A stretch of 64,000 nt of DNA from an uncultured delta proteobacterium (GTDB lineage Bacteria > Desulfobacterota > Binatia > Binatales > Binataceae). Positions within the stretch are counted from its first letter, which is position 1; each line of letters opens with the position of its first letter. The stretch spans positions 179,496-243,495 of the forward strand of contig CAWEEQ010000002.1 in assembly GCA_963808235.1 (NCBI GenBank), given 5' to 3'. The notes beneath the pieces are model-generated. The model was not told where the DNA came from. It ran no database searches and saw nothing but the letters and a program-made list of their open reading frames with translations. Made by a program: the position numbers and the translations under genes. Shown piece by piece: positions 4,151 through 51,966 of the stretch.

Positions 4151-4182
4151 CACATGAATTTGCGGATTTCGAAGGTCTAATT

Positions 4183-4226
4183 TGGTGGACGCACCTGGAC
4201 TCGAACCAGGGACCTCTTGCATGTGA
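4183..4226 (-). tRNA. 3' half of tRNA-Val(CAC); att-site remnant
   Basis: Minus strand TCACATGCAAGAGGTCCCTGGTTCGAGTCCAGGTGCGTCCACCA: anticodon loop, T-arm and CCA; no 5' half adjacent. Confidence 0.8.
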
Positions 4227-4373
4227 GTTGTGCAACCTTGCGTAAACGCCAGAATAGTCTGATATCGCTCGATAGCGCTACAAGGTAGCGAAAGCGCTGT
4301 GGCAGAAGGGTTTTCTGTGCACGACTAAAGTGCGACCATCAGTTACAGAGTACTTTCGATTGATCTCCGGTTG

Positions 4374-4413
4374 GGGCACAGAATCGGGCACAGAGGGCAC
4401 AAAATTGGGCACA
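4374..4413. repeat. Four GGGCACA direct repeats, likely integrase arm-type sites
   Basis: Copies at 4374, 4386, 4395, 4407, about 150 bp inside the tRNA-Val remnant. Confidence 0.65.
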
Positions 4414-4433
4414 GCAAATCGGACGCCGGCGCG

Positions 4434-5315
4434 TCACATCCACGAAGCCTTCTGCGGATCCCAGCGGCCGGTCGCGCGGCCGGCCAGCACAGGATCGAGC
4501 AGCGCCGCCGCTTGCGCATAGCCCCGACGCAGGTCCGGATCGAGACCAACTTCGTTGGCCAGCTTCCGGTATGGGACCGCCCATTCGGGCGGCGGTGGCG
4601 GGAACCGATCCGGAAGACCATGTTGACGCCTTCCCTCAAAAACTCCTTCGAGCGCACTGCGAAGGCGAGCGGCGTCCAGCACCATGAGTTGTTTCACGAG
4701 GACAAGATCGACGAGATCTTTTGCGCGACTGCTCCGGCGACCTTGGCCGTAGGTTTTTGTGTATGCGTGGACCTTCTCCGCGATGTGTTGCTCAAGCGGC
4801 AGGACTGGCACTTCGATCGGTTCGATGTCGGCGAACGCCAGTAGATCCTGTCCGCGAATCGGTTCGGGCTTCCATTTCAGCGAGTCTGAAAACCCGATAT
4901 CGACCATGACTTCCTCGAACCGCCTGCCTGCGAGTTCGGCTCGGACGCGGTATCTCACCGCGAGACCTTCAACCTCTTTACCCGGCGCTCCGACCTTTTC
5001 TATGTCGAAGGTAAAGTAGTCGTCGATCTCGACAGCTTGGGCGGCTATGAAGTCAGCGGTGGCCGCCGTCTCGTCGTCGCGGTGAAAGATATCCATGTCC
5101 TTCGTGGTCCGCGTCCGTTCTCCCATCCGGAAGTCGAGGGCCAGCGCTCCCTTAAGAACCCAGCGGCCTGGCGCGGCGATCGCGAGACGAAAGAGAAGGC
5201 GGTCAAAGACGACGGCCTTTCGCAGCCGGACAAGGGAAATGCCCTTGTCACGCGATCGCGTGAGCAGACGCTGCTCAAGTGCTTGACGAAATGCGGCTCC
5301 GCTTTGGTACTTCAT
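4434..5315 (-). CDS. abiEii: AbiEii-family nucleotidyltransferase toxin (type IV TA)
   Basis: WVLKGALAL, RTTKDMD, HIAEKVHAY, SRAKDLVDL; start overlaps the antitoxin stop (ATGA). Confidence 0.9.
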   Translation of the reverse strand: MKYQSGAAFRQALEQRLLTRSRDKGISLVRLRKAVVFDRLLFRLAIAAPGRWVLKGALALDFRMGERTRTTKDMDIFHRDDETAATADFIAAQAVEIDDYFTFDIEKVGAPGKEVEGLAVRYRVRAELAGRRFEEVMVDIGFSDSLKWKPEPIRGQDLLAFADIEPIEVPVLPLEQHIAEKVHAYTKTYGQGRRSSRAKDLVDLVLVKQLMVLDAARLRSALEGVFEGRRQHGLPDRFPPPPPEWAVPYRKLANEVGLDPDLRRGYAQAAALLDPVLAGRATGRWDPQKASWM

Positions 5316-5932
5316 TTGCGGTGTCGCGCCTCGAGAACTTGTCGAACAAGGCGCTCGACTCGACCTCCACGCGTCTTCGCAACCCCGAGGAGTTTTGATT
5401 CGGTTGCCATGCCTCGGTCGAGTGCCTGGCCGACTGCGGCCATTATCTGCTCCGGGGCGGTTCCCGCTTGGGCCGCGTCGATGATCGAGCGCGCCGGTGC
5501 GGTCACTCGAACTCCGTCGCGCACCACGACGTCGGACTTGGCAAGGCGCCGCGTTGTCGTGTGTATCGCGACGCCCAGAGATGCGAAGCGATAGCGCCTC
5601 GCTCGGGGGACGGTAAGGTGAACGACCTCGGGCACCACGTCGGAAAGCCCGAGGATGTCGAGCGCGCTTTCATGCGATACAACGGTGTTCTCTCTTCCCG
5701 ACCCAAGCCACGCCGCGATCACGTCTTCGCGGGGTGAACTCGGGTATTCGCGAATGCGGTAGAGGCCCTGACGGACTCGGGAAAAGCGGCCTGATTTGGC
5801 ATGATGCGCCAGTAGCGATTTACTAAAGCCGCACGAATGCGCCTGAGCGGCAGTGAAATATCCCCCCTGCTCAGAGGCGATTTCGAAGAGCTGTGCGCGC
5901 CGCGACTTTGATTCGAGATCATTGTCACGCAT
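5312..5932 (-). CDS. abiEi: AbiEi-family antitoxin (type IV TA)
   Basis: IASEQGGYFTAAQA, RVRQGLYR, VVSHESAL, VRVTAPARSIIDA. Confidence 0.9.
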   Translation of the reverse strand: MRDNDLESKSRRAQLFEIASEQGGYFTAAQAHSCGFSKSLLAHHAKSGRFSRVRQGLYRIREYPSSPREDVIAAWLGSGRENTVVSHESALDILGLSDVVPEVVHLTVPRARRYRFASLGVAIHTTTRRLAKSDVVVRDGVRVTAPARSIIDAAQAGTAPEQIMAAVGQALDRGMATESKLLGVAKTRGGRVERLVRQVLEARHRK

Positions 5933-6016
5933 AGGTCAAATGATACTTGACTTTATCATGACATCAAATACTGCAACAGATTGTTCAGGCTTCGGAGCTT
6001 GTTTCTCGAAAATGAA

Positions 6017-6037
6017 TGTTCCACGTTACGTGGAACA
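6017..6037. other. Palindrome equal to a parS-type site with a 5-nt insertion
   Basis: TGTTCCACGT-TACGT-GGAACA versus parS-type TGTTCCACGTGGAACA. Confidence 0.4.
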
Positions 6038-6184
6038 GCAGGTTTCGCGCATCGCAGCGGCGCATTCGCCGCTCGACGAATGACGGCGACGACTCCAGAG
6101 GGTATTGAACGACATCAATCCTTACGCCGATTCACTTCTATTCATGGCAACCTGAATTAGGCCTCAACTAGGACAGGAAAAGCG

Positions 6185-6376
6185 ATTACTGAAACATGTA
6201 AGTTATGCGGTGAGGAATCGACACCGTGGGAATACATCGACGTGCTCGACGGTCACGTGTGCGCGGACTGCAGCTACCGGCTGGCTGCGCTGTTCGCGAA
6301 TGATGGGTCGCTATCACGGGCCGACCTGCTTGCGGTGTACGGAACCGAAGCCCGGAAGAAGGCGGACTTGCCATGA
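6185..6376 (+). CDS. Small putative zinc-finger protein (63 aa, ATT start or 5'-damaged)
   Basis: ITETCKLCGEE...HVCADCSYRLAALF; purine-rich GGACAGGAAAA upstream; absent from the ORF track because it lacks a standard start. Confidence 0.45.
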   Translation: MTETCKLCGEESTPWEYIDVLDGHVCADCSYRLAALFANDGSLSRADLLAVYGTEARKKADLP

Positions 6377-6444
6377 GGCGGTTGGAGATGCTCGCTTTGA
6401 TCTGATCTCACTTCAATGTGGCCGCGCTCACGTGAGCGCGGAAA

Positions 6445-6519
6445 CGAAATGGCATACGCAGAGGACTTAAAATCCTCTGGAGCGAAAGCTCCGTGCGGGT
6501 TCGAGTCCCGCCCCCGGCA
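6445..6519 (+). tRNA. tRNA-Leu(TAA) lacking the 5' acceptor strand; left att site
   Basis: D-loop, anticodon arm GAGGA-CTTAAAA-TCCTC, long variable arm, T-arm and 3' acceptor CCCCGGCA are present; the expected 5' GCCGGGG is absent, and a perfect 20-bp palindrome lies at 6422-6441. Confidence 0.8.
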
Positions 6520-6577
6520 ATTGAAAATTAAGGGTTTTCTGGCGAGTCGTCGCTGCAAGCGGGACTAGTCTGCGCCG

Positions 6578-6604
6578 TTGACAGCCACGTTTGACAGCCA
6601 CGGG
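6578..6604 (+). repeat. TTGACAGCCA x2, left arm-type sites
   Basis: TTTGACAGCCACGGG is shared exactly with 50120-50134. Confidence 0.7.
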
Positions 6605-6629
6605 TTCGCGGATTCTGTTGCTAGACTAG

Positions 6630-6872
6630 GTTCGCAACGTAGGGGTCGAGAGTTCAAATCCCCTCTGCTCCACACCTCAGTCTCCAGGGTTTCGGACATG
6701 GCGGAGAATCGATCGAAATCCGCGCGTGTGCGCGCGAATTGCGCACATGTGCGGACCCGGAGAATATCTCTGTCGCCCAGAATTGGCCTAATCTGGCGAA
6801 ACCTATCCCGGCGCGATTAGCCTAGGTCCGCGGATCATCGCCATGCATTCGCCTTTTCTTTTTCAGCGCTCC
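6630..6872 (+). repeat. Repeat R1: degenerate tRNA-Ala(CGC) 3' half plus ~200-bp body
   Basis: TTCGCAACGTAGGGGTCGAGAGTTCAAATCCCCTCTGCTCCAC, then a body shared with R2-R5. Confidence 0.85.
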
Positions 6873-7161
6873 GCCAGCTTAGAATCAGGAATCTCCAAAT
6901 GCACGGGTCGCGGGTCGAGTTGGTTTTTAGGGTCAAAGGTAAGCTCCTCGCCACTGACCTGCCGCCCGAATTTCTCGGAACGCGCAACCAATGGCAGCCA
7001 ATCCAAGTGCGCAACCTTGACGTATGTATAGACGGTAGTGTTAAGTGGCAGGGACTGACTTGTCTGTGGCTTAGTTTCCGAAGACAATCTGCCACCTCTT
7101 GCAGAGATGCGCTCAGGTAATGCCGATGCCGCGTGGGCAAGGCGGTTTCGCGGGAGGGTTC

Positions 7162-7629
7162 GTGCGTCTGAAAAAAGGGTTTCTGCTGATCTTATTCTTA
7201 GCCTTGACATCCTGCGCTTCCAACAACTCCACTCCGACGCCGCCGAGATCCCAAAGCAACGCCGGACAGGCTGTATCAAAAAAAGACACGGAAACAATCC
7301 AGTCGGCATCGGGCGAGAAGTGCATCATAGATGAGAAGAGAATCTGCGAAGAGGGGGCGGCGGGAGTAGCGAACGATCCCTTCGGCGCTGACAACAGCGA
7401 GGACATACGTGAACGAATCGCCTCGGGTGATGATACGGGCGGGTCGAAAACCTACACCTCGACGCTGCGCTATGGAGTCTCTCTTCTTCAAGGGGAGCGA
7501 CCGGTGAATTTGTTTTGCGGCATGAACATGCACCAACGCGCGTTTGCTTACGGTCAATTGTCTACGAGCGGCACCCCCACCGATACAGATGTCGCAAAGC
7601 TGCGCGCCGGGGGGTACTGCTCCAACTAA
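7162..7629 (+). CDS. Hypothetical lipoprotein
   Basis: GGGAGG RBS, GTG start, lipobox LTSC, four further Cys. Confidence 0.65.
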   Translation: MRLKKGFLLILFLALTSCASNNSTPTPPRSQSNAGQAVSKKDTETIQSASGEKCIIDEKRICEEGAAGVANDPFGADNSEDIRERIASGDDTGGSKTYTSTLRYGVSLLQGERPVNLFCGMNMHQRAFAYGQLSTSGTPTDTDVAKLRAGGYCSN

Positions 7630-7647
7630 GACTGGAGGAGGCCAGCT

Positions 7648-10371
7648 ATGCCGACAACGATCCGCAGGATCACAATCGGCAACAATCGGGCTTGGAGATC
7701 GATGCGTACGAATATCCGCCTGGGCTGCGCGGTCTCAATGCTCACATTCTGTGTTTTGGCTTCGTCCACAGTTCGATCCGAAAGCAATCCGGTTCCTATT
7801 CCCTCTCCCGCGGGAAGTCGTGACCAGGCGGTTGACAAGACCGAAGCAGCGCTTCGCGACGAGCTGCGCACGCTAGAAGCGCAAAATCCCAATAGTATTG
7901 AGGTCACCAAAGATCTCGATCTCCTTGCTTGGTACTATTGGAATCACGGCCGGTTCTCCGACGCTGAACCATTGTTGATACAATCGCTAGCAATCAAGGA
8001 GAAGTCACTGTCGGCAGATGATTCTGCGATCGAGGAGAATATAGATAGGCTTGGGGAACTCTACGCCTGGGAGGGGCGATTCTCGGAAGCGGAGCGACTC
8101 CTAAATCGCGCGCTCCAGAGCCCGGGTGAAGAAGATGTGGCGAACCCGTGGTTGGCGGGCCGCGCGCACATTTTTCTCGGCACCGTATACCTCGAGGAGG
8201 GAAAGCTGCAAGAGGCGGAAACGTTGCTCAAGCAGGGCCTCGAACTCCGGCTTAGAACCACCACACGAGGCACCGGAATCGAAATTACCTACGATCTACG
8301 AAGCTTGGCCGAATTGTATTGCGAGGAAGGGCGTTTCGCAGAAGCGGAGCCTTTGGGATCCCAAAGTATGAAGCTGAGCGAGCCCAATAGTCTCATATAT
8401 GCGTACGCGCTTGACACGCTCGCTGACGCCTATTACGGCGAGGGCCGGTATGCCGACGCAGAACGTCTATATTCCGAATCGGGTCCAATCCTCCTGCGTC
8501 AAATGGGAGACGCTCACGTCTACTACGAACAGAATTTGGGCTCGCTCGGACTTACGCTCGCGAAGGAAGGAAAAGTCCAGCCGGCGCGGGACAGCTTTCG
8601 CAAATCATGGGCGGTCAATCTAAATACCTGGCATGCGGCGACGCAGTCGGGCAGCGAGTCTTTGCGTTTTCTCAGGAACAAAAGCGATCAATATGTCCGA
8701 GGTTATCTGGAATTGCTGGCCGCGATCGCGCGCCATCCAGAAATGGACCCGGGCGGTGCGTCACCGGCACCCGAGGCGTTCATGGTCGCAGAACAAGCGC
8801 GCCGGGGTATCACCGATCTTGCACTGGTCAAAGCGGCGGTGCGGCTTGCAGTCGCCGACCCGGATGCCGGCGAGGCTGCCGCCGAAGTGCAGCGCCTCAG
8901 CGAGCGGCGGGCTGGGATGGCAATGCAGCTTTCGACGCAATTCGGCGCTTCGAAAGAAAATCAGCAAGACGCAGCTAAAGTTCTCGCAGAATCGCAACAG
9001 CTTGACCATGACCTGGAGATCGCAAACCAGCGACTGATTCAAGTCTTTCCAAAATATGGCGAGTTAGCGACGCCGTTGCCTATCGACGTAGACGGCGTAC
9101 AACGAGTACTGCGCGCCGACGAGGCGCTGGTCAGTTACTACACGCTCAACGACCGGCTACTGGCGTGGTGCGTGCGACCCGGTCATCCGCTGGCATATCG
9201 CGATACCGAAGTTAAGCGCGCAGATCTGATGGCGATGGTCGCGCAGGTTCGCGAGAGCCTTCGTCCCGACAAACCGTTCGACTTCGTTGACTCATACGCG
9301 CTCTACCAGTTGCTTATAGCTCCGTTGAAAGATGAGCTTGCCAGCACCAAGTTACTTATCATCGTACCGGACGGGGTAACTCTGCCGATTCCTTTCGCCG
9401 CGCTGGTCACTGACAATACGGGCGATGCGTTTGCGGCGTTGGCACGAGATTATAAGCAAGGTCTCGCGCCATCGCCCGCTGAGTTGAAGGACAACTATCC
9501 CCGTATTGCCTGGTTCGCAAAGAGAAGTATGAGCATTAGTCTCCTACCTACGGCCACTTCTCTCCGACTACTCAGAAATCGGGTCGAAGCGAGCAACACC
9601 GCGAACGCGTCATCGGCCAAGGCTTACCCCTTCGTCGGAATCGGCGATCCGTTGCTGAACGGCAAGGGCGAAGAGCGTGGTAGCTCGATGGTGGCGACGC
9701 GAGGCGCCGAAGCAATCGACGCGGTGCGGAATCTGCCGAGACTTCCCGGTTCGCGCGAGGAGCTAATGGCTGAAGCTAAGGCGCTCGATGCCAATCCTCA
9801 AGAGTCGCTCTTCATGGAAGAACGGGCGACCCGGCCGCAGGTGCTGGCGCTGAGCAAAGATCGTTTGCGCGACGCAAAGGTAATCTCGTTTGCGACACAC
9901 GCGCTCATAGGTGGCGAGATAAAGGGAGTCATGGAACCGTCTCTGGTGCTCACACCACCCTCGCAGCCGAGCACAGACGATGACGGATTGCTTACGATGG
10001 ACGACGTGATGGGATTCAAGTTGGTCGCCGACGAGTGGGTAATCCTCTCTGCCTGCAACACGGCGGCTCCTGACGGAAGTGGCGAAGGACTGTCAGGCCT
10101 GACCCGCGCGTTCTTTTACGCGGGCACTCCATCGCTGCTGGTCTCGCAATGGGCCGTTGATGACGCAGCGACCGATCAGCTGATGACCGCGGTGTTCACG
10201 GCTTACGGAAGCAGCGGCGGAGTCTCGCGCTCAACGGCGCTGCAGGGAGCGATGCTCAAGCTGATGGACATGCCGCGCACTGACCCGACACACGCCTACT
10301 TCGCCCATCCGTTCGCCTGGGCATCATTCGTCGTAGTCGGCGAAGGCGGCGGTTCTCAACCGACCAAGTGA
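7648..10371 (+). CDS. Exported TPR + CHAT (caspase-like) protease
   Basis: Signal-like N-terminus, TPRs (GRFSDAEPLL), IVPDG, FATHA and LSACNT catalytic dyad, FFYAG, HPFAWASF. Confidence 0.92.
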   Translation: MPTTIRRITIGNNRAWRSMRTNIRLGCAVSMLTFCVLASSTVRSESNPVPIPSPAGSRDQAVDKTEAALRDELRTLEAQNPNSIEVTKDLDLLAWYYWNHGRFSDAEPLLIQSLAIKEKSLSADDSAIEENIDRLGELYAWEGRFSEAERLLNRALQSPGEEDVANPWLAGRAHIFLGTVYLEEGKLQEAETLLKQGLELRLRTTTRGTGIEITYDLRSLAELYCEEGRFAEAEPLGSQSMKLSEPNSLIYAYALDTLADAYYGEGRYADAERLYSESGPILLRQMGDAHVYYEQNLGSLGLTLAKEGKVQPARDSFRKSWAVNLNTWHAATQSGSESLRFLRNKSDQYVRGYLELLAAIARHPEMDPGGASPAPEAFMVAEQARRGITDLALVKAAVRLAVADPDAGEAAAEVQRLSERRAGMAMQLSTQFGASKENQQDAAKVLAESQQLDHDLEIANQRLIQVFPKYGELATPLPIDVDGVQRVLRADEALVSYYTLNDRLLAWCVRPGHPLAYRDTEVKRADLMAMVAQVRESLRPDKPFDFVDSYALYQLLIAPLKDELASTKLLIIVPDGVTLPIPFAALVTDNTGDAFAALARDYKQGLAPSPAELKDNYPRIAWFAKRSMSISLLPTATSLRLLRNRVEASNTANASSAKAYPFVGIGDPLLNGKGEERGSSMVATRGAEAIDAVRNLPRLPGSREELMAEAKALDANPQESLFMEERATRPQVLALSKDRLRDAKVISFATHALIGGEIKGVMEPSLVLTPPSQPSTDDDGLLTMDDVMGFKLVADEWVILSACNTAAPDGSGEGLSGLTRAFFYAGTPSLLVSQWAVDDAATDQLMTAVFTAYGSSGGVSRSTALQGAMLKLMDMPRTDPTHAYFAHPFAWASFVVVGEGGGSQPTK

Positions 10372-10425
10372 TGCTACGGCTGACAAAGGGACAGGTAATC
10401 TTGCGAGCGCTTTAGGAGCGCGATC

Positions 10426-11019
10426 ATGCGAAGGAGCGTTCGTGAAATACTGGGCGACGGTCTAGTAGGCATTGTCGGCGCCGCGATCGGATTCGGAATT
10501 TCTCAAGGAGTCAACTTTTACAGTTTGTCAAAAACTCTTGAGACCACCAGAGACATCCAGATGGTTAATCTGGCGCGGCAACTCTCGGGCGACTTTGAAG
10601 AGAACAAGGACTTCGAAGACTTCCGGATGGCTATCGAAAGATGCGACCCGCTGTTCAACGGTTGGCGCTGGCCAGCCGGAAACGGCCCTACAGTCTGGCG
10701 GGGAAGGTTTAACAATGATCAGGTGAACAGATATCTGAACTTTTTCGACGATATAGGATTCTACAATAAACGTGACGATCTCAACCTTGAGATCGTTCGA
10801 CAGATGTTTGGGCCATATGTTGTCGAAGCGTATGAAGAGCCGGAGATAAAGTGCTACATAGAGGGCTTACATACTCAGGCGCATCAGTCTTCGGCCTTCT
10901 CGCATTTTGTACTATTAGCGCGTGGACTCGAAGCTGCAGAACCTGATCTGGCTGCCTTTGAGCGGAATAAGTTCGCGAAAATCTCTCACTTTGACTGCCC
11001 GCTTTCAGGGAAAAAATGA
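10426..11019 (+). CDS. Membrane-anchored hypothetical protein, DUF4760-like
   Basis: N-terminal TM; YLNFFDDIG...LEIVRQMFG pattern. Confidence 0.55.
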   Translation: MRRSVREILGDGLVGIVGAAIGFGISQGVNFYSLSKTLETTRDIQMVNLARQLSGDFEENKDFEDFRMAIERCDPLFNGWRWPAGNGPTVWRGRFNNDQVNRYLNFFDDIGFYNKRDDLNLEIVRQMFGPYVVEAYEEPEIKCYIEGLHTQAHQSSAFSHFVLLARGLEAAEPDLAAFERNKFAKISHFDCPLSGKK

Positions 11020-11058
11020 CCAACATGCAGCGGAGTAAGGGCGGTAGAGGAGAAAAAA

Positions 11059-11412
11059 GTGATCAAACAAATCGCGGTGGTGGCGGCTTCGGCGATGGTC
11101 GTGGTGACGATAGCATTCGCGGCTGGGGCACCTGCCGCATACGCTGCGCCCAAGGTTGATTGCGACACCGTCATGAATGAATTGCATAAAGGCAAGGATG
11201 CCAACGATGTAGCAACGGCCCTGTCAATCTCAGTCTCGAGCGTCGATCAATGTAAGAGGCACGCCAAGGCCGCGGCCGACTCTGGCACAGGCGCCTCCAG
11301 CGAGAAGTCGCAGCCGCAGGCTTCGCCGGTTCTCCGAGGCGGTGAGTCAGAAGAGAGCGCGGGAGGATGTCCGCAGGAGCCTTGCCCTCCAGACGCAAGC
11401 AACCCTCGATAG
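11059..11412 (+). CDS. Small secreted protein with a Cys-flanked HTH-like segment
   Basis: GAGGAG RBS, signal peptide AYA-A, DCDTVMNEL...VATALSISVSSVDQC. Confidence 0.65.
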   Translation: MIKQIAVVAASAMVVVTIAFAAGAPAAYAAPKVDCDTVMNELHKGKDANDVATALSISVSSVDQCKRHAKAAADSGTGASSEKSQPQASPVLRGGESEESAGGCPQEPCPPDASNPR

Positions 11413-11690
11413 GCGGTAGGATTTCGGAAGGTTCAGCGCGATGATCTCCGATGCCGCGCGCCGAACGCTGGAAATGTCTGACAGGTCGCACAGAACCGAT
11501 GCCGCACTCTGCCCTTTTTGGTCGATGATCTTCTTAACGTCGTCGAGCCTCTGGCTTTCACGGCCGACCAGCATGACATGCCGTGTTTGGCAAGTTGCCA
11601 GGGCCGTCGCACGGCCGATCCCCGAAGTCGGGCGGGTGATGAGGTACGCTTTGCGAGTTGACGCGTTCTTAAAACCGGTCTCCGGCATAT
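11410..11690 (-). pseudogene. Truncated short-chain dehydrogenase
   Basis: YLITRPTSGIGRATA...LVGR...CDLSDISSVRRAA; N-terminal third only. Confidence 0.7.
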
Positions 11691-11739
11691 CTGTCTCCAT
11701 TTTTGTCTGTCTAGTCAGTCTTTCCTTGGCCAAAAAAAT

Positions 11740-11990
11740 TTAGGCGACGATTCGCCAGAGGGCCTCGAACGCACTCGCGCCATGTTTGCCTCGTTGACTG
11801 GGTCGCGGATCACGAAGTCGATCGTTGCTTTCGCCAGCCCGTTCATCAAAGGCTGCGACGAACCCCAGCGGAGTGTCGCGCATTGGCCCATTTTCACGGC
11901 TCCGCTCCAGTAGCTTTGCGACGCCAGCCATCGCCCGGCTCGCATTCCGATGGCTCTCCAAGCCGATCCTAGCGATACCGTCAAGATCTT
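11740..11990 (-). pseudogene. TetR-family C-terminal fragment
   Basis: Frameshifted pieces ending FEALWRIVA directly upstream of the SDR remnant. Confidence 0.45.
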
Positions 11991-12116
11991 CCCTGGAGAA
12001 AAAGTCGCGAAGAGCTGGCGATGATTATCTCTGCGGCACAGCTGCTTTAATCTTCGGCGAATTTGTCGCCAAATCCGCGGACAATTTTGCGATGAAAAGG
12101 CGAACTAGGGGCCGGC

Positions 12117-12329
12117 GGTTCAAATCCGCTTTGCTCCACCATTCAGTCTCTCGATTTTCGGACATCGCGGTAATCGGCGCGTGTGCGCGCGATTTGCGCA
12201 CATGTGCGGACCCGGAGAATCTCTCTTGTCGCGCAGAATTGGCCGAATCTGGCGAAACCTATCGCGGCGCGATTTGGCTAGGTCCGCGGATCATCGCCAT
12301 GGATTTGCCTCTTCTTTTTTCAGCGCTCC
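12117..12329 (+). repeat. Repeat R2
   Basis: GGTTCAAATCCGCTTTGCTCCACCATTCAGTCTC...GCGCACATGTGCGGACCCGGAGAAT...TAGGTCCGCGGATCATCGCCATG...TTTCAGCGCTCC. Confidence 0.9.
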
Positions 12330-12357
12330 TCCTGGGGTGACAGCAGAATCCTGGCTG

Positions 12358-13440
12358 CTATGGGCGGACTTCATAGTAGGCGTTGATCGGGTTATCGAAG
12401 TCCTTGGTTGCGAAGCGCGTGAATCCGGCCTCCGCCGTCATCTTGCGGGCGACCGGTTCGGGAAATCCGAGCGTGCCCAATCCCAAGCCGTCGGGCTCAG
12501 AAAGAGCTGACGACATACAGCAAATCACTGAGAAGCCATACATGAGCGGCGCCAGGGGATTTTGCTTCAGGTTTTCCTCGAACGTCGGCATCCCATGAAC
12601 GTCGGCGATCAGCCACGTTCCGTCGGATTTGATGGCTTTGCGAATGGCCTGCATCACGAGGTCAGGCCGCGTCATGTCGTGGAGGCAATCGAAGGTTGTG
12701 ATGAAATCGCAACTAGCATCACCGGGCAGAGGATCGACGGCCACGTCATGCAGATGCACGTTCTTCACTCCGGCCTTCCGCGCGTTTTCTTCTCCGCGCT
12801 GGAGGGGCAACTTAGCGATATCGTAGCCGTGAAACTCCGACCGCGGATAAGCCTTTGCCATCTCGATAATTGCAACGCCTGCGCCACATCCGACATCCGC
12901 TGCTTTGGCTCCTGCATTCAGCTTTGCGACGACGCCGTCAAGCCTTGGCAAGGCGTTGGGTACAAGCTGGGTCCGAAACCACGGGGCGAGCAGTCGTTCG
13001 ACGCCGACATTCACTTCCGAACCGAACTGGTCATAAGACAGGCCGAGTCCGCTCTTGAACGACCGCGGCAGTTCGTTCAACAGCGCCATCTGCTGCGGGA
13101 GTGCGCAAAAGCCGCCGGCAAGAAAAAAGGGACTGTTTTCGTCCGCTAGCACCAGGGCACCTTCGGGGCTGAGCTCAAAACGTGACTCACCCCTGTAGTC
13201 TATTACGTTCGCGGATGCCTGCTGATAGAGCCACTCGCGAACCCAGCGTTCATCAAGGCCGGTCTTGCGCGCGAGTTCTTCGCTGGTGAGAGGACCGGCA
13301 CCATTCAGCGCCCTGTAGAGACCCATGCGTTCGCCAAGATGGATCATGCCCGAGACCAGCGCTCCCGCGAGGTGGCTGAAGACCTCCTGCGCGAACTTTT
13401 GCGTTTTCTCGACATCGATCAGATAATTTTTGTCAGACAT
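12358..13440 (-). CDS. Class I SAM methyltransferase with N-terminal winged helix (Rv2258c-like)
   Basis: GLDERWVREWL, ADVGCGAG, FDCLHDM, GLGTLG. Confidence 0.88.
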   Translation of the reverse strand: MSDKNYLIDVEKTQKFAQEVFSHLAGALVSGMIHLGERMGLYRALNGAGPLTSEELARKTGLDERWVREWLYQQASANVIDYRGESRFELSPEGALVLADENSPFFLAGGFCALPQQMALLNELPRSFKSGLGLSYDQFGSEVNVGVERLLAPWFRTQLVPNALPRLDGVVAKLNAGAKAADVGCGAGVAIIEMAKAYPRSEFHGYDIAKLPLQRGEENARKAGVKNVHLHDVAVDPLPGDASCDFITTFDCLHDMTRPDLVMQAIRKAIKSDGTWLIADVHGMPTFEENLKQNPLAPLMYGFSVICCMSSALSEPDGLGLGTLGFPEPVARKMTAEAGFTRFATKDFDNPINAYYEVRP

Positions 13441-13478
13441 AGCGAAACCTCCCAACTCGCGAAAATCCTCGCGGAGTC

Positions 13479-14273
13479 CTATCTTCCCTTGAAGACGGGT
13501 TGGCGTTTCTCGAGGAATGCCTTGCGCGCTTCCTTTGCGTCCTCGCTGCTGAAGGCGATGCGAATATTAGACAACTCATAGCGGAGTTGCTGTTCCATGT
13601 CGCTCGTCTCCAGGGACTTCACCATTCCGCGCTTGAGAAGCCGAAGCGTGATGGGCGACCAGTTGCAGAGTTCTGCGCAGTAGCGCGCCAAGCGGTCGGC
13701 GAACTGCGCGTCATCAACCAGTTCTCCGGCCATGCCAAGCGCGACCGCCTCTTCGCCCAGCACCGTCCGGTTCTCCATCATGAAACGCATCGCCTGCTCG
13801 TAGCCTATAGCTTGCGGCAGGGTGATCGTAAGGCCGGCGTCAGGTGAACCGCCAATTCTCGTATAGCCGGCCATGAGCCTCGCGCCGCGGCTGACCAGCC
13901 TTACGTCGGTCGCCATTGCGAGACCGAGACCGGCGCCGACGGCTACTCCGTTGATGCCGCCGACGACAGGTTTGTCGCACCGTTTGCGGATCGCCAAGAG
14001 GAAATGGCCGACCCAGGAAATGTCATCGAGCTGAGCCGATTGTGCAGACAGCGGCGTAGAGCGATCGGCACCGGACAAATCCAAGCCGGAGCAAAACGCG
14101 TCGCCGCTGCCGGTAATTGCGATCACCCAGACTTCATCCGTCCGCGCTGCATCCTCAACCGCAGCGATCACACCCCACGCGAGGGCATTGCTCAACGCAT
14201 TCTTTTTTTCCGGGCGATTGAGCGTGATGGTTCTGACATGGCCCGCATCCGTGATTTTCACGATGTCTGTCAT
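13479..14273 (-). CDS. Enoyl-CoA hydratase/isomerase family protein
   Basis: TLNRPEKKNAL, AFCSGLDL, INGVAVGAG, AFLEKRQPVFKGR. Confidence 0.93.
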   Translation of the reverse strand: MTDIVKITDAGHVRTITLNRPEKKNALSNALAWGVIAAVEDAARTDEVWVIAITGSGDAFCSGLDLSGADRSTPLSAQSAQLDDISWVGHFLLAIRKRCDKPVVGGINGVAVGAGLGLAMATDVRLVSRGARLMAGYTRIGGSPDAGLTITLPQAIGYEQAMRFMMENRTVLGEEAVALGMAGELVDDAQFADRLARYCAELCNWSPITLRLLKRGMVKSLETSDMEQQLRYELSNIRIAFSSEDAKEARKAFLEKRQPVFKGR

Positions 14274-14507
14274 TTCGCTTGCCTTTCTATGGCTAAGGGA
14301 TTTCGATCGCGCTCCGATTCTGGCTCATCCGCTGTGCTCAGGTCCAACTCCGGAGGACTTCACAGAGAGCGTGCTGCGTTTTTCCATTCGCTGGGCACTT
14401 TGCTGGACGATTCGTTGCCGATTTGATGACCGGGGCGTTGGCTCTCAGCCGGCAGACGCGAATGTGAACAACGGGCTGTCGTCGGGCAGATGAGAAACTG
14501 GGCTTAC

Positions 14508-14712
14508 AGTTCAAACCCCTTCTGCTCCGGATTTCAGTCTCCAACTTTCCGGAGATCTCAGAGAATCGATCGAGGTCGGCGGGTGTGCGCGCGATTCGCG
14601 ATCGAGCGCGGACCCGGAGAACGCCTAGGTTGGCGCAAATCGGCAAAATCGCGTAAAGACCCATCCAGGCACTATTTTGCTAGGTCCGCGGATCCTCGTC
14701 GTAGATTCGCCT
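14508..14712 (+). repeat. Repeat R3 (diverged)
   Basis: AGTTCAAACCCCTTCTGCTCC...TCAGTCTCC...GAGAATCGATCGA...GCGGACCCGGAGAA...CTAGGTCCGCGGATC. Confidence 0.8.
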
Positions 14713-14761
14713 GCGGACCGCGCACGTAGTCAGGCGCGCAATTCGCGCAGGGGAGCAGCAA

Positions 14762-15433
14762 ATGACCCCACAGTTCTCGGCCTTGCAAAGGATGCTCGCG
14801 ATCATAAAATACCGATCACCTCTAGGTAGTCTGCGCAGGCGCAACGCTGACCGAACCAGGGCGTTACTCTTCGTGAAATTCGATCCTGAGACAGGAGCAC
14901 CCAAATGGTCGCCGCGCGTTCGGATGGAGAAGATCCGCATGCTCTATCGGAACGACGCCACTGGTATCCTCGATGAAGAGTTGCTCGACGACGTCGGCAT
15001 CACGCTTTATTGCCGATGCGAAAGCATCCTCGACGCATCGGACGCTTTGCTCGGTAAGGTCCACTGCCCGAGCTGCGCGAACGTGATTAGGCGCAAGCGC
15101 GCGAGCGGAGGCAACCACGAGGAGGTAAAGCGTGAGCAGCTCGTCTGCGCCAAATGTGGCTGGACGATCCGATGGCTCGATTACCAGAAAACCTTTCAAC
15201 ACAAGGACTTGTGGGGCATTGGATTTGCGGATGCGATGCATGAGTTTATGGCGCGTTGGAAATCGTGCGGAAGCGCTCGCGAGAAGATGTTACTCATCGA
15301 CCGGCTGATTCACATCTGGCATTGGCAGTTCAGCGACGAACGTGGCGCGAGCCGCCCCGCCGCGCCGACGTTCATCGAGGGCGGTAGCAGAAAGGAAATC
15401 ATCAGATTTCTCGACGATCTCTCGAAGTCTTAG
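14762..15433 (+). CDS. Hypothetical zinc-ribbon protein (true start probably further downstream)
   Basis: CPSC...CAKC; sits alone between R3 and R4. Confidence 0.65.
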   Translation: MTPQFSALQRMLAIIKYRSPLGSLRRRNADRTRALLFVKFDPETGAPKWSPRVRMEKIRMLYRNDATGILDEELLDDVGITLYCRCESILDASDALLGKVHCPSCANVIRRKRASGGNHEEVKREQLVCAKCGWTIRWLDYQKTFQHKDLWGIGFADAMHEFMARWKSCGSAREKMLLIDRLIHIWHWQFSDERGASRPAAPTFIEGGSRKEIIRFLDDLSKS

Positions 15434-15582
15434 TTGACCGCTAGCGGATTGAGCCGAGGTATTGTTCATTGGTCAGGCGGAACCACTCTGTCTCGCTGTT
15501 CGCGGACGCACGTTAGACTTACACACGCCGACGTTAAACGGAACGATTGGCTGTCGTCTGGCTGACGAGAAAAGGGGCTGAA

Positions 15583-15660
15583 AGTTCAAACCCACTCTGC
15601 TCCACATTTCAGTTTTCCAGGGTTTCGGACATCCCAGAGAATCGATCGAGCGCGCTCGTG
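15583..15660 (+). repeat. Repeat R4 (truncated), abutting the integrase stop
   Basis: AGTTCAAACCCACTCTGCTCCACATTTCAGTTTTCCAGGGTTTCGGACATCCCAGAGAATCGATCGA. Confidence 0.8.
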
Positions 15661-15672
15661 AAACCTAGGGAA

Positions 15673-16851
15673 CTAGCCGTTGAGGATCGTGTCCATTTTG
15701 TCGGCCATATCCTGCATCATAGATGGCATGACGTGGCTGTAGGTATTGGCTGTCAGAGCGATCGTGCTGTGACCAAGGAGTTCCATGATTGCCCGGAGCT
15801 GAACGCCTTGGGCTAGCAATAGGCTTGCAGCGCTGTGGCGCAAATCATGAAACCGGGTTGATAGCGGAATCTTGGCGTCAGCTTCGGGTCCGTTGGCCTT
15901 CTCCAGAATCCGCTTGAAGTCTCTGACGGCAGAACGCGGCTCTATCGGCGTTCCGATTCCGGTCGTGAAGACGAGTCCGCGCTCGGTCCATCCGAAACTG
16001 GCGATAAGGCGTTCTTGAAGCTGGCGCGCACGATGAGCGCGTAGTGATCGAACGAGCGCATCGGGTATTCGCAGAGTTCGCCTGCTACGGTCCGTCTTCG
16101 GCTCGACAAATTGGAGCCTGCCGGGACCTGTTCCGAATCGCTTGCCGCCCACTCGCTGCAGCGATTGCCGAATCGTAATTTGCTGCCGTTCCAGGTCCAC
16201 GTCCATCCAGCGCAGCCCGAGTGCCTCGCCCTCGCGAAGTCCGAGCCCGAGCGCCACGCTGTACAGTGCTTCGAGCCGTTCGCCTTTGGCTGCATCAAGG
16301 AATTTGCGCGACTGATCGAGATCCAGGGGTTTGATCTCCGGGCGCCGAACCTTCGGGGTATCAACGAGCTTGGCGACGTTGCGGCCGACGAGGCTCCACT
16401 TCACCGCAGTCTGAAGGGCGTGCCGAAGGATTACCAGACTGAGCTGGACTGTGCGCGGCGAAAGGTCGCTCTTGAGCCTTTCGTTCACGAAGGTCTGAAC
16501 ATGCTGAGGCGACAGTTTCGAAAGCCGTTGCTTTCCCAGTGAGGGCCCTAGGTAAAGTCGAACATGCTGATGGTACTGCTGATACGTTGCCGGGCGAACG
16601 CTTGATTTCACGGAGTCCTCAAGCCAGTGGTCGAGGAATTCTTTGACCGTCTGTAGCTCGACCGACACCGGAAGGCCGCGAGACTGGTCGAAACGCGCTT
16701 TGAGCAGCTCGTCTCGTACCTCAGCGGCTGTCGCGGCGTAAAAGTGCCTTCGTTTACGCTTGCCGCCTTGCCAGCCCAGATTGAGAGAGCCGACCCAGCG
16801 CCCATCCTTGCGCTGGAAGATCGAACCCTCGCTTGTTCCGCGCTTCGCCAT
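15673..16851 (-). CDS. int: Tyrosine integrase, phage/ICE type
   Basis: GSIFQRKDGRW arm-binding domain; GLREGEALGL, PKT, FHDLRHSAASLL, LGHS, YSHV catalytic set. Confidence 0.95.
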   Translation of the reverse strand: MAKRGTSEGSIFQRKDGRWVGSLNLGWQGGKRKRRHFYAATAAEVRDELLKARFDQSRGLPVSVELQTVKEFLDHWLEDSVKSSVRPATYQQYHQHVRLYLGPSLGKQRLSKLSPQHVQTFVNERLKSDLSPRTVQLSLVILRHALQTAVKWSLVGRNVAKLVDTPKVRRPEIKPLDLDQSRKFLDAAKGERLEALYSVALGLGLREGEALGLRWMDVDLERQQITIRQSLQRVGGKRFGTGPGRLQFVEPKTDRSRRTLRIPDALVRSLRAHRARQLQERLIASFGWTERGLVFTTGIGTPIEPRSAVRDFKRILEKANGPEADAKIPLSTRFHDLRHSAASLLLAQGVQLRAIMELLGHSTIALTANTYSHVMPSMMQDMADKMDTILNG

Positions 16852-16855
16852 GAAA

Positions 16856-37245: not shown

Positions 37246-37526
37246 TCTACCCTCCCGGGAAAATCGTTACGGGTAAACAAGGACGTTTGCGCGAGTTGGA
37301 AAGTGATGGAGTGTAGACGTTCGGCGCGCGCGATCCTAGAGGATGGCGCAGTTTAGAGACTGCGCCCAAGAGTCACGCTTGGCGCTGGCCCGGCTCCGAT
37401 ACTAAGCTCTAAAAGAAACGGAGGCGGAGCGATGGCCGGGGAAAAGAAGTCAGATGCGCAGCGAATTCGCGCGAATCTCAAGCATCCGGGATTGTAGTCC
37501 GCGTCCTTCGCCGGGATCAAATTTTG

Positions 37527-37692
37527 CGAACCGGGAGGCAAATCGCGCCGCGATAGGTTTCGCCAGATTCGGCCAATTCTGCGCGACAAGAGAGATTCTC
37601 CGGGTCCGCACATGTGCGCAAATCGCGCGCACACGAGCCGATTTCGATCGATTCTCCGAGACGTCCGATAACCGAGGGACTGAATGGTGGAT
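37527..37692 (-). repeat. Repeat R5 (inverted)
   Basis: Minus strand TCCACCATTCAGTCCCTCG...GCGCACATGTGCGGACCCGGAGAATCTCTCTTGTCGCGCAGAATTGGCCGAATCTGGCGAAACCTATCGCGGCGCGATTTG; core matches R2 almost exactly. Confidence 0.88.
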
Positions 37693-37720
37693 GACCCAGT
37701 CCGATGCGTACTGCTCTCCC

Positions 37721-37790
37721 TGTCAACCTGTCAACCGGTTGACACCCATACGGCGGTTGACAAGCGGCGGTTGACGCCTTGGAGGTTGAC
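37721..37790. repeat. Six GGTTGAC motifs (2 inverted, 4 direct)
   Basis: Includes the perfect palindrome TGTCAACCGGTTGACA at 37729-37744. Confidence 0.75.
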
Positions 37791-37816
37791 GCGCGGACAC
37801 CAAGCCTCAAACGCTG

Positions 37817-42163: not shown

Positions 42164-42180
42164 GCTCGTGCTTTCGTAGT

Positions 42181-42609: not shown

Positions 42610-42624
42610 TGTTCTACCTACTCC

Positions 42625-47743: not shown

Positions 47744-47945
47744 GTCGTCGTCCTATCCCTCGCGTACTCTCGCTAGGTGAGACAGCGCCCACGACTGAGA
47801 TGGCGCCGTCGCCGAGAAGCGTAGCCGTGTGGTGCGAGCGCCGAGCCAAGCCCGGCAAATTCACAGGTCTGAATAAACGAAATTGAAACGCCCGCCACGC
47901 GCGAGTACATGTCGCAAGAATTCGACGTGAATGGTTCAACGAGTT

Positions 47946-49760: not shown

Positions 49761-50108
49761 CGACGCCCCCTCCCGAGACATCGGAAAGCCCAAACGTAGA
49801 AAAAGCCGACAATTCGTGAGCGATGGCTTTTATACAAAAGGAGAAGGGTTACGTCAATCAAAATAGTTATTTTATTTTCACACTTAGTTATTTTCCGGAA
49901 TAACAGTCTGTCCACACGAGCTGCTCCAGCCGCTACGAAGGAGCATGGTATCGCGTGAACGGACTGCATTGCTGGAGCCGATTCGGGTCTTATTCGTTTT
50001 CGTGGCGCTGTCGCGGATGCGCGAATCACCCGCGGCGCAATGACAGTGAATAGGGGCCGCCCTCGTTAATCTGCCAAATCGGGCGCACCTATGCCCTCGT
50101 CGAAGTTT

Positions 50109-50134
50109 TTGACAGCCAATTTGACAGCCACGGG
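50109..50134 (+). repeat. TTGACAGCCA x2, right arm-type sites
   Basis: Matches 6578-6604; about 90 bp before the second tRNA-Leu remnant. Confidence 0.7.
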
Positions 50135-50224
50135 CTAAGACACGGGCGGATGAAGTGCACTTCGGTGGACTGCAAGGGCCGCGATTTGCTTAGGTTTGGA
50201 TGCCGGCGGACACGATTCAATGGA

Positions 50225-50279
50225 ACTTAAAATTCTCAGGAGGGCAACCTCCGTGCGGGTTCGAGTCCCGCCCCCGGCA
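50225..50279 (+). tRNA. tRNA-Leu(TAA) 3' half; att junction
   Basis: ACTTAAAATTCTCAGGAGGGCAACCTCCGTGCGGGTTCGAGTCCCGCCCCCGGCA. Confidence 0.85.
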
Positions 50280-51816: not shown

Positions 51817-51966
51817 GATGGGGTCTGCGATCCTTAGCGGTTTGTGGATTCCGAGCCAGCGGCGACGCGCTTGGACGGTCGGCCGCCTGCGCTCCTGATT
51901 CTTGTTCCACTACTAGACCGGGAAATGAGAAGGATACGACTCACGTTCTACGCAATCGAATACGCT

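Follow-up and report, generated by a model that had tools for sequence, protein, structure and literature searches.

A putative accretion array of recombinase-less gene blocks delimited by a tRNA-Ala(CGC)-derived repeat in a Binataceae genome

Introduction

In island stacks of the SCC type, cassettes are separated by repeated integration-site sequences, and some of the cassettes carry no recombinase and rely on that of a neighbour. Composite islands of the SCC/SCCmec type and the cassette chromosome of Enterococcus (PMC6222049) have Ccr serine recombinases that act at rlmH. CIMEs and tandem accretion at the attachment sites of ICEs and IMEs were described in the ICESt1/ICESt3 model (PMC5704250). 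The tycheposons of Prochlorococcus form islands by tRNA genes, with full or partial tRNAs flanking the elements; later integrations displace older elements deeper into the island, and degenerate remnants persist (bioRxiv 10.1101/2020.12.28.424599). According to the same source, the majority of tycheposons encode a tyrosine recombinase along with genes for replication, and a large serine recombinase is present in 27 of 937. In Dehalococcoides, ssrA-specific islands (PMC3146451) are integrated in tandem at a single small RNA gene, and every one of them ends with a copy of the 3' end of this gene.

A literature search on Binatota and integrase found no paper on the mobile elements of this group. 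The locus described here lies in a stretch of 64,000 nt (the window) of contig CAWEEQ010000002.1, from the assembly GCA_963808235.1 of an uncultured member of Binataceae.

Results

The window contains five copies of a repeat built of a head and a body of about 183 nt (R1–R5, Table 1). R1–R3 are full copies, R1–R4 lie on the same strand and R5 is inverted. BLAST comparison of R1 with the remaining copies gave E-values from 7e-65 to 2e-16, so the repeat is far above chance. All five copies listed in the first-pass annotation were found again at the same places by profile and BLAST matches, and the start that it described as common to the same-strand copies (GTTCAAA-YCC...TGCTCC) was recovered in the form of one direct-repeat family. 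The palindrome CGCACATGTGCG was located in R1, R2 and R5 and the inverted pair GCGGACC/GGTCCGC in R1–R3, as had been reported. R1 does carry the tRNA-Ala(CGC) anticodon loop, since its segment 6630-6672 aligns to tRNA-Ala(CGC) genes from there onward. Two of the copies corresponded to their first description in part. R4 retains the head and body positions 1-56, the remainder being absent, and R5 is an inverted copy as far as its body is concerned, the tRNA head being replaced by a different, iteron-rich one (four GTCAACC and two GGTTGAC motifs plus a non-tRNA inverted-repeat core). A tmRNA origin of the head, guessed from a GCTCCACCA-like end, was dropped after the head had been aligned with tRNA-Ala(CGC). 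No tRNA was called by ARAGORN in the window.

Table 1. Coordinates of the repeat copies, gene blocks and island ends in the window
Feature	Position	Strand	Description
AbiEii/AbiEi toxin-antitoxin islet	4177..6519		bounded by tRNA-Val(CAC) and tRNA-Leu fragments
tRNA-Val(CAC) 3' fragment, inverted	4180-4227		left limit of AbiE islet
Island left end (attL-like)	6445..6615	+	tRNA-Leu(TAA) 3' part and ~95 nt conserved flank
tRNA-Leu(TAA) 3' part	6445-6519	+	left island end
Direct repeat TTGACAGCCAC x2	6577-6601	+	left island flank
R1	6630..6853	+	head 6630-6672, tRNA-Ala(CGC) 3' part from anticodon loop to discriminator; body full length
R1 body	6670-6852	+	profile 1-183
Block 1 (R1-R2)	6854..11995		two unknown ORFs, CHAT-TPR protein, DUF4760 protein, truncated short-chain dehydrogenase; recombinase absent
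CHAT-TPR protein	7648-10371		in block 1
R2	11996..12320	+	class-1 arm, tRNA-like head, full-length body
R2 class-1 arm	11996-12106	+	conserved in at least 9 copies from relatives
R2 head	12107-12138	+	resembles tRNA T-arm/acceptor
R2 body	12136-12308	+	profile 1-183, internal 11-nt deletion
Block 2 (R2-R3)	12321..14469		methyltransferase and enoyl-CoA hydratase
Methyltransferase	12358-13455	-	in block 2
Enoyl-CoA hydratase	13479-14273	-	in block 2
R3	14470..14712	+	class-2 arm (short, hairpin-like), tRNA-like head, full-length body
R3 body	14531-14710	+	profile 5-183
Block 3 (R3-R4)	14713..15544		single unknown ORF 14762-15433
R4	15545..15655	+	class-2 arm, head, body positions 1-56 only
R4 body match	15602-15655	+	profile 1-56; integrase gene 3' flank comes next
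Tyrosine integrase	15673-16914	-	Phage_integrase and SAM-like N-terminal domain (Pfam)
R5	37525..37800	-	class-3 head, body positions 1-163
R5 body match	37525-37690	-	profile 1-163
Island right end (attR-like)	50108..50279	+	repeat pair and tRNA-Leu(TAA) 3' fragment
TTGACAGCCA repeat pair, same as left	50108-50131	+	right island end
tRNA-Leu(TAA) 3' fragment	50225-50279	+	right island end
Third tRNA-Leu(TAA) 3' fragment	60251-60305

The head corresponds to the 3' part of tRNA-Ala(CGC), and head and body together match native tRNA-Ala(CGC) and its downstream sequence at C1:169430 and C2:77940 of the same genome, where the body also sits behind tRNA-Met(CAT). Overall, the intact tRNA genes followed by the body were those for Ala-CGC, Met, Ser-GGA, Val, Lys and Pro, and one full-length body was found behind tRNA-Ala-TGC. 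By alignment, the trailer of tRNA-Ser of this genome may have a patchy likeness to the body, undetected by the body profile.

The repeat was found only in Candidatus Binatus/Binataceae, in 39 of 47 genomes of the genus and in at least 129 metagenome stretches. Two patterns scanned in viral contigs for a phage or plasmid form of the site gave no match. A total of 213 distinct copies was collected. The body has strongly conserved blocks. The copies derive from related genomes and are not independent. There were one to nine matches per genome, clustered in a few variable island zones with tRNA genes at their start. This distribution spoke against a dispersed repeat and against the end of a MITE or IS. 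In the arrays of relatives, the first copy stands at an intact tRNA-Ala gene, right after about 8 kb of conserved synteny, and more same-strand copies follow beyond it at a spacing of 1–10 kb. The array in the window is not anchored at an intact tRNA-Ala gene, the nearest one being 108 kb off on the opposite strand. Nesting inside a larger tRNA-Leu(TAA) island would explain why an array of the tRNA-Ala type is located so far from any such gene.

Among the 213 copies, 53 end at body position ~162, after GGTCC. Enough flanking sequence for assessment was available for 34 of these short copies, and in 18 of them a convergent large serine recombinase gene, with Resolvase and Recombinase domains, was present at a distance of up to 1.2 kb, so related elements sharing the att arm and a recombinase exist in relatives. 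No recombinase lay near the other 16, and a serine recombinase was near none of 79 full-length copies, the form to which R1–R3 belong. In relatives, the repeat thus corresponds to the end of serine-recombinase elements, an outcome that the first-pass annotation had set against its own reading. The heads of the recombinase-linked copies were intact tRNA-Ala (3), tRNA-Ser(GGA) (3), Val, Lys and Pro (1 each), class-3 (5), class-4 (2) and unclassified (2). The class-1 and class-2 arms, as in R2–R4, were never linked to the recombinase; like the full-length copies and the 16 short ones with no recombinase nearby, they count against its action on the sites. The nearest solved relative of this enzyme by sequence is the catalytic domain of TP901-1 integrase. 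The sequence directly past GGTCC varies between element subfamilies, which also speaks against the recombinase reading. The putative cut would lie at the 3' end of the tRNA or just behind GGTCC. The right-hand motif of the body, searched for loosely, was too permissive and yielded chance matches for the most part, with a few informative orphan sites (GGTCC and the right half) in array loci. A split site at L036 was set aside as an apparent insertion duplicating CTAG, with no relation to the recombinase.

R1–R4 are direct repeats on one strand, their heads align with tRNA-Ala(CGC), and each places the 3' end of the target gene at a block boundary. The reading preferred here, with a probability of roughly 0.6, is that islets without a recombinase, of a CIME-like or SCC-like type, accreted into an array bounded by att-type junctions, on which the serine recombinase family probably acts in trans. 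The repeat would be an attachment-site junction in which the tRNA-Ala(CGC)-derived head is joined to a conserved non-coding arm, the body, and this arm may be the tRNA-proximal end or the landing pad of a Candidatus Binatus family of integrative elements. Successive insertions (tandem accretion) would each have left one head-plus-arm copy at the boundary of the element. Most elements would have lost the recombinase gene or never had it, leaving a stack of small islets, and a serine recombinase supplied in cis or in trans would integrate and excise them. The whole array would sit in a larger, separate island run by the neighbouring tyrosine integrase and the tRNA-Leu(TAA) sites. No serine recombinase was found in the genome (assembly 93% complete), which speaks against this reading; the array would currently be orphaned. 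Sites of about 50 bp normally suffice for large serine recombinases, and 2-bp repeats are left; a shared unit of 220–330 nt does not follow from the known mechanism of these enzymes.

A variant that is possible but doubtful regards the body as a maintained landing pad behind several Binatus tRNA genes, regenerated by every incoming element. The locus would then resemble an integron as a cassette platform, one that larger islands could carry along and that a large serine recombinase would operate in trans. This enzyme, whether its gene lay at any place in the cell or came in with one element, would stack, excise and exchange the recombinase-less modules.

Pfam analysis of all window ORFs revealed no recombinase, relaxase or coupling protein within 6854-15544, no conjugation genes were seen and the ORFs scanned showed no primase or helicase module. 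Block 2 appears to consist of two fused modules, because the methyltransferase and the hydratase each recur separately elsewhere: the methyltransferase block with 94% nucleotide identity in the array of another species (G020), and the hydratase block, together with a class-2 head, with 93% nucleotide identity in the C1 array of the same genome. The AbiE islet shares 99.4% identity with a sequence of G059, also a different species of this genus. Identity between these species is about 80% for the core OPT gene, and set against this value the identities of 93–94% and 99.4% suggest horizontal movement of the blocks. The 345 ORFs flanking copies were highly diverse, falling into 278 clusters, and the three clusters with at least eight members (15, 11 and 8) were all on the upstream, syntenic side. 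The recurrent blocks and the variable island zones are in keeping with the first-pass view of the copies as recombination-site-like boundaries of unrelated, exchangeable blocks.

Logan contigs from four soil runs showed a permuted module order in related strains. A clean repeat-to-repeat excision joint or a circle junction was absent from these contigs, a comparison in which array stretches lacking contig cover and short-sided hybrid R1/R3 or R2/R3 joints gave no information, as copies of the repeat from other places align at these points. Permuted orders could also arise without a dedicated recombinase, if a passive head-plus-body repeat was spread and reshuffled by RecA-dependent homologous recombination and gene conversion. 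Units of 220–330 nt with 73–87% identity and the lack of a recombinase in the arrays of this genome are compatible with such an origin, and the 98% identity of R2 and R5 across 108 nt, despite different heads and ends, points to gene conversion or homologous exchange also being at work. As the explanation of the whole array it is nevertheless unlikely. An identity of 73–87% is low for efficient homologous recombination, and passive spread would not be expected to produce blocks that stay invariant over 213 copies and 39 genomes, recurrent junctions that fall sharply at the 3' end of the tRNA and behind GGTCC, or class-specific arms with sharp outer limits.

R4 abuts the tyrosine integrase gene, as noted in the first-pass annotation, its last shared base and the stop codon of ORF 15673-16914 being about 18 nt apart, and this enzyme had been proposed as the partner of the repeat. 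The copies would then be its att sites and the array would result from repeated integration at a tRNA-Ala-like site. The gene is convergent with the tRNA-like head, like homologues beside tRNA-Phe and tRNA-Ser genes, and tyrosine integrases typically go with 3' fragments of tRNAs that are identical over tens of nt. However, orthologues with 84–90% identity (G004, G056 and G062) have no adjoining tRNA-Ala head or body, the similarity of their loci to the window ends about 30 nt beyond the stop codon, and in G004 and G056 the gene is located 4.7–8.4 kb from a tRNA-Leu(TAA) site. In the window, a separate 43.8-kb island spans 6445-50279, bracketed by tRNA-Leu(TAA) fragments with a matching arm repeat beside each of them. 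Moreover, a profile that does detect XerC/D found no tyrosine recombinase in about 60 array loci of relatives, and 127 metagenome loci gave just two weak matches. The integrase as partner of the repeat is thus very unlikely, and on these comparisons it is best assigned to the tRNA-Leu(TAA) island.

Two related candidates were rejected. R5 could not serve as the right end of an element formed by R4 and the integrase, as it is inverted, carries the whole first part of the body and has no element arm, and the arm repeats of the integrase pair with the tRNA-Leu fragments. The truncated copies did not fit a second crossover fixed at ATCGATCGA (body position ~56), as they break at varying bases; because the breakpoints differ from copy to copy, these truncations look like deletions, which also counts against att sites of the tyrosine integrase.

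The body does not encode a protein and has no conserved RNA fold. No frame was open across all 54 anchored copies and 3-nt periodicity was absent, ruling out a coding body. RNAalifold gave a consensus with 0 pairs over 71 copies and, in an analysis of each strand with 70 rows, 0 and 3 pairs. The top covarying columns of the alignment were not Watson-Crick, the mutual-information pairs reflecting two sub-families rather than base pairs, and single-sequence folds were no better than shuffles (z-scores of -1.1 and -1.35), which excluded a structured RNA. In the Rfam comparison, which like the covariance analysis had been proposed with the first-pass annotation, tRNA was the sole match and the body had none. 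Terminator-like and promoter-like sites were not enriched. A role of the body as a functional RNA or as a regulatory trailer for some tRNA genes (a small RNA derived from the 3' trailer, a terminator or a processing signal), with the body carried as a passenger alongside tRNA fragments, would suit the strong conservation of the blocks and the start of the body exactly at the 3' end of several different tRNAs, but it is highly improbable given the absence of a consensus fold, compensatory change, Rfam match and site enrichment, and most copies follow either tRNA fragments that are non-functional or a head unrelated to tRNA, positions at which it would be of no use.

Discussion

The likeness of the locus to CIMEs lies in blocks stripped of integration and transfer genes, in newcomers integrating at a resident element's att site and in composites that could move jointly, as outlined for the ICESt1/ICESt3 model (PMC5704250). 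It differs in the Binatota host, in a much longer shared unit (head and 183-nt arm, with class-specific outer arms), in the link to a large serine recombinase in relatives and in the lack of visible conjugation genes, and the mobility of the islets is putative. Stacked cassettes between repeated integration-site sequences, the recombinase-less ones being served by a neighbour, are shared with SCC-type islands, whereas the target is found behind tRNA genes instead of at the 3' end of rlmH and the repeats have about ten times the length. Tycheposons and the Binatus arrays share partial tRNA flanks and tandem stacking, but the sections of the tycheposon account drawn on here describe no long conserved non-coding arm behind several tRNAs (bioRxiv 10.1101/2020.12.28.424599). 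The Dehalococcoides islands differ in being larger and in having tmRNA as their target. With integrons the locus shares an ordered row of promoter-poor gene cassettes with recombination sites between them. In contrast to integrons, it has no IntI-type integrase, attI or attC hairpin, and its sites are tRNA-derived and 220 nt long. The sole integrase in the window is of the phage type, with a SAM-like N-terminal domain, and was assigned to the tRNA-Leu sites; attC-like folding was not observed, conserved pairing being absent on both strands, and the cassette genes lie on both strands, unlike the cassettes of integrons with their one orientation.

The earlier interpretation stands in its part on boundaries and gene exchange. 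The tyrosine integrase as partner is not supported, and the array, which the first-pass annotation did not recognise as a named element, fits the tandem accretion of recombinase-less islets known from CIMEs, SCC-like composites and tycheposon islands.

A hotspot of gene swapping by successive insertion at a recombination site is of a known kind, here encountered in a little-studied phylum. Binatota are abundant uncultured soil bacteria, and the locus shows the layout of their accessory genes. Those for CHAT protease, AbiE, RHS toxins, STAND cyclases and methyltransferases form small modules between long conserved att-type junctions; the modules are nested in larger islands and common to several species. 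The conserved arm could be used as a marker of island boundaries in Binataceae genomes. If a serine recombinase does act on this arm in trans, the arrays would provide a further natural case of cassette stacking by serine recombinases.

Anatomy of the tRNA-headed repeat

The tRNA-headed repeat described in the first-pass annotation was confirmed: it was recovered among the repeat families of the window (same-strand families D5–D8 and D10, inverted pairs I1–I4), and its five copies, R1–R5, could be aligned. In BLAST comparisons, R1 matched the other copies with E-values from 7e-65 to 2e-16. A profile of the body, the conserved arm following the variable head, was built from 71 copies and its limits were converted to window coordinates (see table). 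The genome assembly comprises 4.59 Mb in four contigs and, whereas ARAGORN called no tRNA gene in the window, two tRNA-Ala(CGC) genes were found elsewhere. R1 aligned with both of them from the anticodon loop to about 180 nt downstream. Comparison of the body profile with the trailers of all 52 genomic tRNA genes gave three matches, namely both tRNA-Ala(CGC) genes and a tRNA-Met(CAT) gene. The head is thus the tRNA-Ala(CGC) 3' part, and the sequence downstream of the native gene constitutes the body.

Coordinates of the features in the window (G000:C2:179496-243495, where G000 is its genome and C2 the contig) and of related features elsewhere
Feature	Position	Strand	Body profile	Head
R1 body	6670-6852	+	1-183	tRNA-Ala(CGC) 3' part
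R2 body	12136-12308	+	1-183	class 1
R3 body	14531-14710	+	5-183	class 2
R4 body	15602-15655	+	1-56	class 2
R5 body	37525-37690	minus	1-163	class 3
AbiE islet	4177-6519
Inverted tRNA-Val(CAC) fragment	4180-4227
Pseudo-tRNA	6436-6519
tRNA-Leu fragment, left	6445-6519
tRNA-Leu fragment, middle	50225-50279
tRNA-Leu fragment, right	60251-60305
Tyrosine integrase	15673-16914
tRNA-Leu island	6445-50279
Island interior	16856-37500
RHS locus	40446-49793	minus
Tandem copies in TIG/IPT-domain gene	47958-48914
Second block	50280-60305
Paralogue 1	52033-55287
Paralogue 2	55402-58743
PycTM-type effector gene	59042-59611
tRNA-Ala(CGC) gene	C1:169430-169503
tRNA-Ala(CGC) gene	C2:c77940-78015
tRNA-Met(CAT) gene	C1:338838
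Second phage-type integrase	G000:C1:28167-29727
AbiE islet counterpart	G059:C4:1550709-1553051
147-nt tandem unit	L062:13221-14240
DUF2924 gene and IS110-family transposase	L211:8230-8730 and 9212-10300

An alignment of 39 copies and a later head count revealed several kinds of head preceding one common body. Besides intact tRNAs, these were class 1 (a 110-nt conserved arm with a T-arm/acceptor-like stretch), class 2 (a short hairpin-like arm with a T-arm-like stretch), class 3 (not tRNA-like, containing iteron-like GTCAACC/GGTTGAC repeats and an inverted-repeat core), class 4 and others.

A conserved RNA fold of the body was ruled out: RNAalifold returned 0 pairs on the 71 copies and, for a trimmed alignment of 70 rows, 0 on one strand and 3 on the other, the top covarying columns reflected linkage between two sub-families and not Watson–Crick pairs, single-sequence folds were no better than shuffles and the Rfam matches were to tRNA only. 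A coding function was also rejected, as no frame was open across the 54 anchorable copies and the column entropy lacked a 3-nt period. Because the body is strongly conserved (many columns at 90% or more) yet neither folds as RNA nor codes for protein, its conservation points to a role at the DNA level.

Distribution in relatives

The repeat was present in 39 of the 47 genomes of the genus, with 1–9 matches each (E <= 1e-8), and among the relatives drawn first, matches outside the genus amounted to three weak ones, to the tRNA part. A 27-base body pattern occurred in 53 stretches of genome contigs (one genome per species), whose titles named Binatus, Binataceae or 'delta proteobacterium' MAGs in every case except two contigs of 4.7 and 2.1 kb from other bins. 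It also occurred in at least 129 stretches of metagenome contigs; none was found in viral contigs. In eight relatives, an intact tRNA-Ala(CGC) gene and the body directly followed about 8 kb of conserved synteny, which stopped at the body, and more same-strand copies lay beyond at a spacing of 1–10 kb. The genes flanking 72 copies were highly varied, 345 ORFs falling into 278 clusters, and the three clusters with at least eight members (15, 11 and 8) were all on the upstream, syntenic side. A Pfam survey of 113 ORFs from seven loci detected membrane proteins, regulators, methyltransferases, RHS and Kelch proteins, as well as one IS-type transposase and two serine recombinases.

The smaller contigs of the window's genome, C1 and C2, carry Ala-CGC, Ala-GGC, Val-CAC, Ser-GGA, Thr-CGT and SeC tRNAs not found by ARAGORN on the 3.85-Mb contig. 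It is therefore likely that they belong to the chromosome or to essential replicons and are not plasmids that the cell could dispense with.

The tyrosine integrase and the tRNA-Leu island

The tyrosine integrase adjacent to R4 had been proposed as a possible partner of the repeat, a role that the comparison with relatives argues against. Its orthologues in G004, G056 and G062 (84–90% identity) adjoin no tRNA-Ala head, and a profile grown from this integrase, which recovered the Xer genes, detected no tyrosine recombinase in about 60 array loci of relatives. Only two weak matches were obtained in 127 metagenome loci, and the PF00589 matches listed for five relatives all lay outside their arrays. 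More distant homologues adjoin tRNA-Glu, tRNA-Phe and tRNA-Ser genes. Tyrosine-recombinase matches in the window's genome numbered five, of which two were Xer-like and one was a fragment; the others were one adjoining tRNA-Val on C1 and the integrase itself.

In G056 and G004, a tRNA-Leu(TAA) gene or fragment, with a conserved flank after it, lies 4.7–8.4 kb from the orthologue. In the window, the direct repeat TTGACAGCCAC is present twice about 60 nt past the left tRNA-Leu fragment and the same pair recurs about 95 nt ahead of the middle one. These pairs follow the pattern of arm-type sites at both ends of one integrated element, and the integrase was on this ground assigned to a 43.8-kb island enclosing the R1–R4 array, R5 and the RHS locus. 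The proximity of R4 to the integrase results from the position of the array between the left arm of the island and the integrase gene.

The second phage-type integrase gene, on C1, terminates 14 nt away from the tRNA-Val(CAC) 3' end, where the direct repeat TTGTGCCC is present twice about 45 nt beyond the tRNA end and overlaps the end of the gene, an arrangement that matches the one of the TTGACAGCCAC pair at tRNA-Leu. In G056, a 147-nt unit in six tandem copies lies between the tRNA-Leu site and the integrase orthologue. The interior of the island encodes a phage-satellite-like and defence-like mix: a DNA methylase, a small terminase subunit, two GHKL-ATPases, a metallo-beta-lactamase-fold protein, a patatin-like lipase and a MacB/FtsX pair. 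The RHS locus consists of a 1564-aa main gene with a 506-aa RHS C-terminal fragment and small ORFs downstream (orphan toxin/immunity-like modules), and terminates at the class-3 arm of R5; the order of RHS and class-3 copy was also found in G013 (loci L027 and L028). A TIG/IPT-domain gene upstream of the RHS gene contains three tandem copies of about 330 nt (73–89% identity).

The AbiEii/AbiEi toxin-antitoxin islet is bordered by an inverted 48-nt 3' fragment of tRNA-Val(CAC), 100% identical to the C1 gene, and by a part of tRNA-Leu(TAA) lacking only about 10 nt of the 5' end. The islet shares 99.4% identity with a stretch in G059, which suggests that it was transferred between species recently. 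A weak Rfam tRNA call at this border (30.4 bits), rejected by ARAGORN, is a pseudo-tRNA in which the islet arm is joined to the tRNA-Leu(TAA) 3' part. The second block, with the third tRNA-Leu fragment at its end, looks like a defence-gene islet. It encodes an acyl-CoA dehydrogenase, a PycTM-type effector and two tandem paralogues of a zinc-ribbon/nucleotide-cyclase/AAA/STAND/TPR protein (repeats D2 and D4, 81–96% identity).

Serine recombinases and the short body

Among 213 distinct body copies, 117 were full length (1–183) and 53 ended near position 162, directly after GGTCC. Large serine recombinases that are closely related to one another (Resolvase and Recombinase domains, about 560 aa) were encoded immediately downstream of body copies, in convergent orientation; among solved structures, the TP901-1 integrase catalytic domain is closest to them (E = 7e-24). 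Of the 34 short copies with enough sequence, 18 had such a gene within 1.2 kb, as against none of 79 full-length copies; the association is specific to the short form. Past GGTCC, the recombinase-linked copies ran into several distinct families, followed by a conserved leader, a small plus-strand ORF and the serine recombinase. Their heads were native tRNA-Ala (three copies), tRNA-Ser(GGA) (three), tRNA-Val, tRNA-Lys and tRNA-Pro (one each), class 3 (five), class 4 (two) and other, unclassified (two), with no class-1 or class-2 head among them. No serine recombinase was found in the window's genome (93% complete). On the metagenome contig L211, a DUF2924 gene and an IS110-family transposase precede the serine recombinase.

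Exchange of array blocks

Array blocks appear to move between genomes. The methyltransferase block was 94% identical to a stretch in the array of G020, and part of the C1 array shared 93% identity with the hydratase block and its class-2 head. In contrast to these two blocks and to the AbiE islet, the core OPT transporter gene shared about 80% identity between these species. Homologous exchange among copies is probably at work too, given the 98% identity of R2 and R5 over 108 nt. The window's strain was present in four soil runs as contig pieces of 100% identity. Contigs of 92–95% identity carried the methyltransferase module followed by the class-1 arm and repeat, as well as the methyltransferase-to-hydratase joint, and the two genes of block 2 (R2 to R3) are therefore separate modules elsewhere. 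The contigs of the four runs, in which rare forms are invisible, showed no clean excision joint.

A model of array formation

Serial site-specific insertion with decay, or recombinase-less satellites, best fits the arrays; SCC-like composites is another name for such arrangements. The body would act as a conserved tRNA-proximal arm, with the large serine recombinase as the likely enzyme. Two sharp junctions recurred, one at the tRNA 3' end and one at GGTCC (position ~162), and either may be the crossover. Crossover after GGTCC is favoured by closely related recombinases behind different tRNAs with only the body in common, and by a few orphan sites combining an unrelated left side with the right-hand motif. 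Crossover at the tRNA 3' end is favoured by tRNA-Ser, Val, Lys and Pro, where the body was seen only in the short form with a recombinase alongside in six of seven such copies, and by the new head joined to the body in every array copy.

Serial insertion with decay and recombinase-less satellites correspond to tandem accretion and cis-mobilizable elements (CIMEs) as described in PMC5704250, and such islands are also known as tycheposon islands (bioRxiv 10.1101/2020.12.28.424599). The Binatus case adds an unusually long, conserved arm common to several tRNAs, an array nested within a tyrosine-integrase island and an orphan host genome without the recombinase.
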